DNA of 1,647 nucleotides from the sequence record OR845765.1. The stretch is one strand, 5' to 3'. Made by a program: the position numbers and the translations under genes. The notes beneath the pieces were generated by a model. It saw only the letters and a program-made list of their open reading frames with translations. It had not been told where the DNA came from and did not search any database. Source of the stretch: Escherichia phage ECO95 1-6-1. This document shows positions 1 to 168 of this stretch, in pieces; positions within the stretch are counted from its first letter, which is position 1; every line of letters starts with the position of its first letter.

Positions 1-22
1 AGTCAGTGCTGGCTGTTTTTTT
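1..22 (+). repeat. Second copy of the terminator 3'-arm plus T-tract motif, truncated by the left window edge
   Basis: Seen in sequence: 1..22 AGTCAGTGCTGGCTGTTTTTTT aligns with 147..168 AGGTCAGTCGCTGGCTTTTTTT (shared TCAGT, GCTGGCT and T7, with about two single-base indels). The 5' stem arm, if it exists, would be upstream of position 1. Confidence 0.3.
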
Positions 23-130
23 CCTTAATAAAGCATCTGTAACTGAAACAATCCGCATATTGATAATATATTGACAGGCATCATTGCTGTCTGTGAAAAA
101 TAAGTCTCTACAAACATATAAGGCCTTTTA

Positions 131-168
131 GCCAGCGTCTTCTTTCAGGTCAGTCGCTGGCTTTTTTT
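131..168 (+). terminator. Candidate Rho-independent terminator acting on plus-strand transcripts (convergent with the esterase gene)
   Basis: Seen in sequence: GCCAGCG (131..137) is the exact reverse complement of CGCTGGC (155..161), with one further C:G pair possible at 139/153, giving a GC-rich stem. It is followed immediately by a 7-nt T-run (162..168). The loop is rather long (~13-17 nt), which lowers confidence. On the minus strand the hairpin is followed by UAAAAGG rather than a U-tract, so it looks unidirectional. Confidence 0.5.

Follow-up and report, generated by a model that had tools for sequence, protein, structure and literature searches.

The two near-identical motifs at the start of the window (the window being the whole stretch of 1,647 nucleotides that was analysed) are very probably the Rho-independent terminators of two tandem, related small RNA genes of the PasA family. 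The first terminator belongs to what is, as judged from its sequence, a variant of PasA itself. The second closes a downstream segment, here called unit 2 (U2), which appears to be a diverged tandem paralogue of the same unit. PasA, its two 3′ ends and the Hfq-binding site EcOnc52 have all been published already; what is added here is the proposed status of the downstream segment, and this is best regarded as an incremental correction. The features of the locus are collected in Table 1.

Table 1. Positions of the features discussed, in window numbering; promoter elements and RNA limits of unit 2 are predictions.
Feature	Position	Strand	Remarks
Terminator 1 of a PasA-type sRNA (unit 1, U1): 3′ arm GUGCUGGCU and G+U7 tail	1..22	+	Remainder of the gene lies left of the window
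AT-rich spacer from terminator 1 to the U2 −35; within the 236-nt read-through isoform of PasA	23..70	+	E2348/69 homologue is collinear
TTGACA, putative −35 hexamer of U2, perfect consensus	71..76	+	Homologous to the TTGACA of PasA and PasC
TGtGAAAAA, putative extended −10 of U2, weak: TGAAAA (N17) or GAAAAA (N18), TG before	92..100	+	Geometry of U1
Predicted U2 sRNA, ~63 nt, EcOnc52-like: variable 5′ part 106–125, U-rich 126–129, hairpin and U7	106..168	+	
30-aa ATG ORF MFVETYFSQTAMMPVNILSICGLFQLQMLY	117..25	− (late strand)	Inside the AT-rich segment
Terminator 2: hairpin AGCCAGCGUCU/AGUCGCUGGCU, one U·U mismatch, 11-nt loop, U7	130..168	+	Ends 1 nt before the esterase stop codon
Prophage sialate O-acetylesterase (nanS-p / SASA family), C-terminal 491 codons	170..1645	−	ORF and Pfam; convergent with the sRNA units; context only

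The window starts with AGTCAGTGCTGGCTGTTTTTTT. Copy 1 of the repeat is GTCAGT-GCTGGCTGTTTTTTT (positions 2–22) and copy 2 is GTCAGTCGCTGGCTTTTTTTT (148–168); their alignment has 19 identities in 20 positions and a single 1-nt indel. A repeat finder returned an ungapped core (8–20 against 156–168, 12/13 identical) and an inverted repeat (130–140/152–162). Local alignment of the first 22 bases with positions 141–170 gives a score of 14, which was reached in none of 1000 dinucleotide-preserving shuffles of the remainder of the window, either anywhere or within 200 nt. An earlier reading of the sequence alone had claimed that near-identical motifs at 1–22 and 147–168 go beyond chance, and this is confirmed. 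The same reading described the bracketed segment as AT-rich, correctly: G+C content is 35% at 23–146, compared to 55% in the coding sequence next to it.

The first 400 bases of the window match 26 Stx1a-converting phages at 99% or better, including H-19B and YYZ-2008, and match many STEC chromosomes at 100%. The window comes from a lambdoid prophage of the Stx1/H-19B type. In E. coli H19 (L001, in which position 6001 corresponds to window position 1) and in phage H-19B, the order along the late strand is Q, stx1 or tRNAs, esterase, a 446-bp spacer, holin S, R and Rz. Positions 1–169 of the window are the esterase-proximal part of this spacer between nanS-p and holin S. The late genes, including nanS-p, are on the minus strand, and both sRNA units are on the plus strand, antisense to the late operon. 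The esterase reading frame matches the Pfam families SASA (6.9e-11) and DUF6645 (3.4e-18), and is labelled 'SASA family carbohydrate esterase' in RefSeq.

A further terminator was found outside the window. It is a strong intrinsic terminator of the late strand (L001 5779–5805, minus strand), which separates nanS-p from the lysis genes and lies some 60 nt upstream of holin S. Read from 5805 to 5779, it has an 11-bp stem, GGCCGTCAGTG...CACTGGCGGCT, followed by TTTTTGTTTT. To judge from its sequence, it would halt transcripts that are not antiterminated before they reach S.

If the motif at position 1 is the 3′ arm of a terminator, then a 5′ arm should lie to the left of the window, as the sequence-only reading predicted. 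It is there: in the genomes that match the first 400 bases at 100%, position 1 is preceded by GAGCCAGCACCTCTCCACCGAA (the longer flank being ...CTGAGCCAGCACCTCTCCACCGAA), and the arm is AGCCAGCAC. Hairpin 1 thus consists of a 9-bp stem, AGCCAGCAC/GUGCUGGCU, followed by G and then U7 (−15.8 kcal/mol, z = −3.3).

This hairpin can be identified with a known RNA. PasA is an Hfq-dependent sRNA of EPEC E2348/69, encoded on the minus strand of NC_011601.1 with its 5′ end at 743499 (Pearl Mizrahi 2021, PMC8550237, table S6). It lies between E2348C_0688 and E2348C_0689 in the orientation > < >, and has 3′ ends at 743415 (the major form, 85 nt) and at 743264 (the minor form, 236 nt). The same authors found that its stability is Hfq-dependent (northern analysis with a delta-hfq strain) and that it takes part in Hfq-mediated pairing as seen by RIL-seq; targets of the PasA family are core and virulence mRNAs, and EcOnc51/EcOnc52 were named as the EHEC homologues (PMC8550237). 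Mapping onto E2348/69 DNA places the major end, 743415, at the last T of T7 tract 1, which is window position 22. The published northern probe, GCCAGCACTGACTTTCGGTGGAGAG (PMC8550237), matches hairpin 1 over its loop and 3′ arm as an exact reverse complement (25/25; L001 5990–6014). Unit 1 (L001 5938–6022) is identical to the 85-nt PasA at 74 of 85 positions (87%), and the 3′ 43 nt, which include the probe site, are the same in both. Homology to PasA, including the published seed GCCAGCACCU and the terminator, is thus present, and it applies to terminator 1 only. The location agrees as well, since the unit is flanked by the sialate esterase and the holin/lysozyme genes and is encoded on the strand opposite to them. 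The synteny is likewise described in a 2026 preprint (Zhu, Shabalina & Storz), where PasA and PasC lie beside holin/lysozyme genes, PasA and PasD2 flank an esterase, and YYZ-2008 serves as the reference PasA phage.

From its sequence and position, unit 1 is taken to be a PasA variant. It has the same slot and strand as PasA and EcOnc51 (esterase > < sRNA > holin) and the same terminator and seed, window 1–22 corresponding to the last 22 nt of PasA. It differs from the E2348/69 gene in its 5′ 40 nt, and only its 3′ tip is inside the window. The divergent 5′ part is probably that of the 'PasA-2' variant described in the preprint (Zhu, Shabalina & Storz, 2026).

Copy 2 had been recognised from the sequence as the 3′ arm of a hairpin with a T-tract, and this holds. 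Hairpin 2 (130–162) pairs AGCCAGCG(U)CU with AG(U)CGCUGGCU in a stem of 8+2 bp (−16 kcal/mol, z = −6.4), with U7 at 162–168. The E2348/69 locus is 94% identical to the present one, and the minor PasA end, 743264, maps to window position 171, 3 nt beyond the T7 run of hairpin 2. The sRNA-side fragment of the RIL-seq chimera escD::pasA.E2348C_0688.IGR (743267–743294; PMC8550237) ends on the last U of T-tract 2, at window position 168. Because the published PasA and RIL-seq ends fall there, both T-tracts are used as 3′ ends in vivo in E2348/69, and for this EPEC homologue the two terminators and their 3′ ends are established. The sequence-only reading would have been given up if there were no complementary arm left of position 1 and no transcript ends at either T-tract; since the arm exists and 3′ ends map to the tracts in the EPEC homologue, neither is the case. 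Its proposal of tandem terminators is also right in functional terms, in that the 236-nt read-through isoform ends at the second terminator.

Both hairpins have a G+C-rich stem-loop followed immediately by a U-run, and they do so on the plus strand only. On the minus strand, A7 precedes each hairpin, and AAAAGG or CAGAAGG comes after it, with no U-run. Both hairpins therefore terminate transcription that opposes the late operon. In nine PasA, PasC and U2 sequences, 93.8% of the cells of the 9-bp stem are paired and the base of the stem is invariant; as a control, sliding the partner strand by 1–3 columns reduces the pairing to 24–47%. Covariation amounts to one compensatory change from G-C to A-U and one C-G to U-G wobble, with low power in as few as nine sequences.

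The sequence-only reading also offered a duplicated intergenic module as an explanation, and this is essentially right. The 146-bp unit aligns with the upstream unit over promoter, body and terminator. Elements shared with the PasA unit are AATAT-TTGACA, CTGTCTG, GAAAA, ATAAGT, CC-TTTTAGCCAGC and the terminator. The local alignment score of the whole units is 15, compared to 8.5 ± 1.3 in shuffles (reached by 3 of 2000). When the hairpins are removed, the 5′ parts still score 13, compared to 8.7 ± 1.5 (reached by 36 of 2000). U2 (window about 71–168) thus appears to be a diverged paralogue of the PasA/PasC unit, homologous across promoter, body and terminator. As RNAs, U2 and PasC are 66% identical and U2 and PasA 62%, compared to 74% for PasA and PasC, and the longest word common to U2 and either PasA or PasC is 14 nt. 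U2 goes uncounted in BLAST-based surveys because it shares no longer word with PasA or PasC; settings like those of the 2026 preprint (28-nt words, >75% coverage) are unable to detect it.

The question that follows is whether U2 has a promoter of its own. TTGACA is located 29 nt upstream of the published 5′ ends of both PasA and PasC. In U1, the counterpart of the U2 −10 is TGtCAGAAA, and the published PasA 5′ end is 6–7 nt downstream of it; transferring this geometry to U2 predicts a start at window 106–107. The predicted RNA (106–168) folds at −16 kcal/mol (z = −3.3). A sigma-70 consensus scan of the window did not call the U2 −10, which has no T at position 6. The same scan produced CTGAAA-18-TATATT at 43–72 (plus strand), a weak hit, the number of hits being no greater than in shuffles; it was rejected, and the homology-based TTGACA promoter is preferred. 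Among 25 distinct copies of U2, variable sites are concentrated in the 5′ end of the RNA (7/20), with 2/17 in the promoter spacer, 1/9 in the −10 region and 1/15 in the 5′ arm; the −35 and the 3′ arm were selection criteria for these copies, so that their invariance is uninformative. The homology and the conservation, taken together with the weak −10, make it on balance likely that U2 is transcribed from its own promoter.

PasC, from prophage PP5 of E2348/69, is a useful comparison. It shares with U2 an exact 14-mer, TTTTAGCCAGCGTC, the geometry of the TTGACA promoter, and a CGCTGGCT-T7-ATTATG end that abuts the esterase stop codon. In the alignment with the 79-nt PasC, however, about 15 nt of the PasC 5′ body are missing from U2 and the loops differ, while the terminator sides are alike, the U2 terminator having its nearest counterpart in PasC. 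PasC looks like a unit 1 body joined to a U2-like terminator, because its promoter and 5′ body are of the unit 1 type; one further locus (L014), with a PasA-type body and a PasC terminator, is a mosaic of the converse kind. On these comparisons it seems best to set U2 apart from PasC, as a third lineage within the PasA/PasC family.

An Rfam search of the window and the whole spacer gave no credible family, PasA and PasC being absent from Rfam 15, and Esr41 (RF02676) had no match, whether in the window (E ≤ 1) or in L001 5600–6300 (E ≤ 10). Esr41 and Esr41-like units occupy the same slot, convergent on an esterase-type gene, and have a TTGACA −35, a terminator of the form (C)GCC(A/G)GC...GCUGGCG, and U7. 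They differ from units 1 and 2 in having other bodies and a UUCUCCA motif. In several loci (L015, L041, L042, L055 and L070), the slot of U2 is filled by other sRNA-like units whose T-tract abuts an esterase-type stop codon. The promoters of these slot relatives are clear (TTGACA-N16/17-TATAAA, TATAGA or TTAAAA), and their terminators are built on a GCCAGC/GCUGGC base, as (C)CGCCAGC...GCUGGCG(G). Because these relatives carry unmistakable promoters, TTGACA is read as the −35 throughout the family. The only unit that scores against the Esr41 model is a type D′ unit (L042 1261–1351, minus strand), with 39 bits against a gathering score of 102. The sequences suggest a superfamily that links Esr41 with PasA and PasC.

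Tandem duplicate sRNAs with proven separate promoters are known from core genomes, as in OmrA/OmrB and PrrF1/PrrF2, and such pairs are also cited in the 2026 preprint. The PasA–U2 pair is like these in consisting of head-to-tail paralogues with conserved 3′ terminator/Hfq modules, diverged 5′ parts and read-through of the first terminator. It is unlike them in that it is carried by a prophage and that the second promoter is a predicted one.

It can be added that the region upstream of the E2348/69 esterase contains a match to STnc100 (RF02076; L003 228–432, plus strand) with 41 bits, which is below the gathering score of 47. This match overlaps the published PasD2 gene (L003 258–429), in line with the relationship between PasD and STnc100 claimed by the 2026 preprint (Zhu, Shabalina & Storz).

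EcOnc51 and EcOnc52 were reported as Hfq-CRAC peaks of EHEC Sakai with predicted Rho-independent terminators (Tree et al. 2014, PMC4104026, table S2). EcOnc51 (Sp12, 2237479–2237555, plus strand) maps to the terminator region of unit 1. EcOnc52 (Sakai Sp4, 1181998–1182075, minus strand) maps to U2, from a 5′ edge at about window 105 to just past the T-tract; these coordinates refer to an older version of the Sakai record than the one used here, so that they may be offset by a few bases. In Sakai Sp4, everything more than 24 nt upstream of the U2 TTGACA has been replaced by IS629, and for this reason unit 1 is absent. By position, EcOnc52 corresponds to U2, at a locus without unit 1. It was first listed simply as an orphan Hfq site, and was afterwards grouped with PasA as a 'PasA homologue'. 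A full-text literature search found no follow-up paper on EcOnc51 or EcOnc52, and a search on the sRNA, nanS-p and holin gave nothing further. Since the U2 copies of Sp4 and Sp12 are identical across the region, the EcOnc52 reads could also be multi-mapped read-through from Sp12.

Solo copies of U2 with an intact promoter region are found on about 100 plasmids of roughly 90 kb among the complete genomes. The pO145 copy is 93% identical overall, yet the 35-nt stretch that begins with TTGACA and runs up to the predicted start is unchanged. In plasmid pO145-12581 (L085 2503–2734), the solo U2 and an 87-nt 3′ pseudogene fragment of the esterase lie together between IS elements. Solo copies of this type are found on EHEC virulence plasmids of about 90 kb, adjoining the uilS lactonase gene.

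Of 5426 complete E. coli genomes, 677 carry U2, with 2307 occurrences in all (median 3 per genome), and the PasA+U2 tandem is found at ≥80% coverage in 671 genomes. In IMG/VR, U2 is downstream of unit 1 in 83 of the 91 informative contexts; this was an exact 16-mer scan, from which about 25 unrelated matches in coding sequences of other phages were discarded. The content of the slot is not the same in all prophages. Among 82 loci upstream of holin, the tandem occupies 11, a single PasC-type unit about 13 and an Esr41-like unit about 11, and 45 have no such unit within 700 nt. The 2026 preprint (Zhu, Shabalina & Storz) concluded that pasA copies do not come from tandem duplication, the minimum distance between copies being 22 kb.

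One locus (L086) is informative on how U2 is lost. It has unit 1, with the stem of terminator 1 fused to the C-T7-ATTATG junction that is specific to terminator 2. Its sequence is that expected if a crossover between the two GCTGGCT copies of an Sp12-type tandem had removed U2. The repeated terminator ends would thus also be sites of gain, loss and reshuffling. The sequence-only reading had suggested an inserted or remnant element flanked by direct repeats, and it stands insofar as U2 can be lost by crossover between the repeats. What does not stand is the view of the segment as a junction scar or junk, since it is an sRNA slot in the late region.

The spacer that follows terminator 1 is also variable. 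Homologues of 23–70 have several distinct breakpoints (Sakai Sp4, L108, L121, L143, L149 and L193). At least six different junctions with IS elements or foreign DNA lie in or at the edge of this 48-nt spacer (L087, L108, L121, L143, L149 and L193), and two spacer junctions are at the identical base (…|TCCGCATATTG). The spacer may be an insertion hotspot.

The anatomy of the locus, the identity with PasA, the in vivo 3′ ends in the EPEC homologue, the tandem homology and the deletion product are all observed. On the basis of these observations, we propose that both units are transcribed on the plus strand in the nanS-p/holin S spacer, antisense to the late operon. In unit 1, the hairpin and U7 would end the main 85-nt PasA RNA at window 22, the 5′ arm of the hairpin holding the published seed. 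Some polymerases would pass terminator 1, and we infer that the G which separates the stem from the U-tract promotes this read-through. They would then stop at terminator 2 (window 168), giving the 236-nt isoform, and terminator 2 would in this way presumably shield nanS-p from antisense transcription. Unit 2 would in addition fire from its own TTGACA promoter, as suggested above, to give an Hfq-bound RNA of ~63 nt, namely EcOnc52. The shared GCTGGCU-U7 ends would function as the hairpin and Hfq-binding 3′ module of the PasA family. They would double as short direct repeats, at which U2 can be deleted and bodies and terminators reshuffled.

The esterase gene itself contains a sequence of interest. 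Window 191–204 (plus strand), which corresponds to the 3′ end of the esterase mRNA on the minus strand, is CTCCAGCACCAGAC, the complement of the PasA target motif GUCUGGUGCUGGAG. In E2348/69, RIL-seq reported this target motif in two esterase genes, E2348C_0688 and E2348C_1246, at their 3′ ends. Because of this complementarity, the esterase message may pair with the neighbouring sRNA.

An alternative that has to be taken seriously is that U2 is not a gene: hairpin 2 would be a fail-safe terminator that also provides a 3′ extension of PasA, and the likeness to a promoter would be a decaying relic of the duplication. The sole published transcript over window 23–168 is indeed the minor 236-nt isoform, and in the EPEC study the region counts as a 3′ extension of PasA and not as a gene (PMC8550237). 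The weak −10, the position of U2 downstream of unit 1 in most IMG/VR contexts, and the EcOnc52 reads, which have no unique assignment between the identical Sp4 and Sp12 copies, fit such a view equally. A decaying relic, however, does not readily account for a perfect TTGACA, a spacing and a TG that are retained while the 5′ part of the RNA varies, nor for solo copies that are unchanged over the 35-nt promoter region at 93% overall identity. In addition, the 5′ edge of the EcOnc52 Hfq peak is at the predicted start site, with no upstream extension, and the sister units in the slot are clearly promoter-driven. We therefore consider the fail-safe arrangement possible but doubtful. It is improbable that the 146-bp segment is a functionless insert or remnant, that is, a recombination scar between ~20-bp direct repeats at a prophage module junction. 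Such a scar would explain why loci with and without the segment exist, why the L086 junction falls exactly in the GCTGGCT repeat, and why IS elements often land in the segment. Against this, the segment is homologous to the neighbouring sRNA unit over its whole length, its RNA is bound by Hfq and occupies the sRNA position in RIL-seq chimeras, it is kept in so many genomes and in several copies in each (a median of 3 in the 677 genomes), and the repeats are arms of terminator hairpins, not target-site duplications.

Two further explanations place the function on the late strand. The hairpins might act there, terminating transcription in both directions or stabilising the 3′ end of the nanS-p message: their reverse complements fold just as well (−15.5 and −20.5 kcal/mol), and hairpin 2 starts 8 nt past the nanS-p stop codon. 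But a bidirectional terminator needs a U-run on both strands, and on the minus strand there is none, only A7 before the hairpins and AAAAGG or CAGAAGG after them; moreover, the scan places the late-strand terminator at L001 5805–5779, just before S. Termination on the late strand was ruled out for lack of the U-run, and a late-strand role as a whole is very improbable. The AT-rich segment might instead encode the 30-aa late-strand peptide listed in Table 1, for which there is an ATG-initiated reading frame with AAAGG 6–10 nt upstream of the ATG. It was rejected as probably not coding, on account of a premature stop at codon 22 in the pO145 copy; IS629 interrupts the Sp4 copy, the peptide matches no family, and the variation fits constraint on a promoter and a terminator, not on codons. 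Of a functional peptide there is hardly any likelihood. A broader reading goes beyond two tandem sRNA genes. It holds that the shared terminator/Hfq module (AGCCAGC...GCUGGCU-U7) is a cassette for recombination of sRNA bodies, and that the pair acts in cis on the lysis genes or is titrated by the late transcript. Prophages would then gain, lose and reshuffle sRNA bodies in the slot between esterase and holin, and this shuffling would account for the PasA–U2 tandem, PasC, L014 and L086 alike. The two sRNAs show perfect complementarity to the late transcript immediately upstream of holin S, and therefore the pair might act in cis on the lysis genes, or be titrated, on induction. As a whole this reading is speculative and we consider it unlikely.

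The preferred reading thus remains that of two tandem, terminated sRNA genes of the PasA family. The sequence-only reading was partly supported; it missed PasA and its paralogue as terminated RNAs, and the orientation of both against the late operon. In EPEC and EHEC, few Hfq partners are more abundant than the PasA-family sRNAs, which pair with virulence mRNAs (LEE, bfp). If U2 is a separate paralogue with a different 5′ end, then RIL-seq and CRAC reads assigned to 'PasA' or 'pasA.IGR' would be interpreted differently. The picture of copy number and evolution would change too, a recent survey having stated that there is no tandem duplication. So would the design of knock-outs, since deleting 'pasA' alone leaves U2 in place. 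For genome annotation, the two terminators mark sRNA genes that have been left unannotated in STEC genomes by the hundred.
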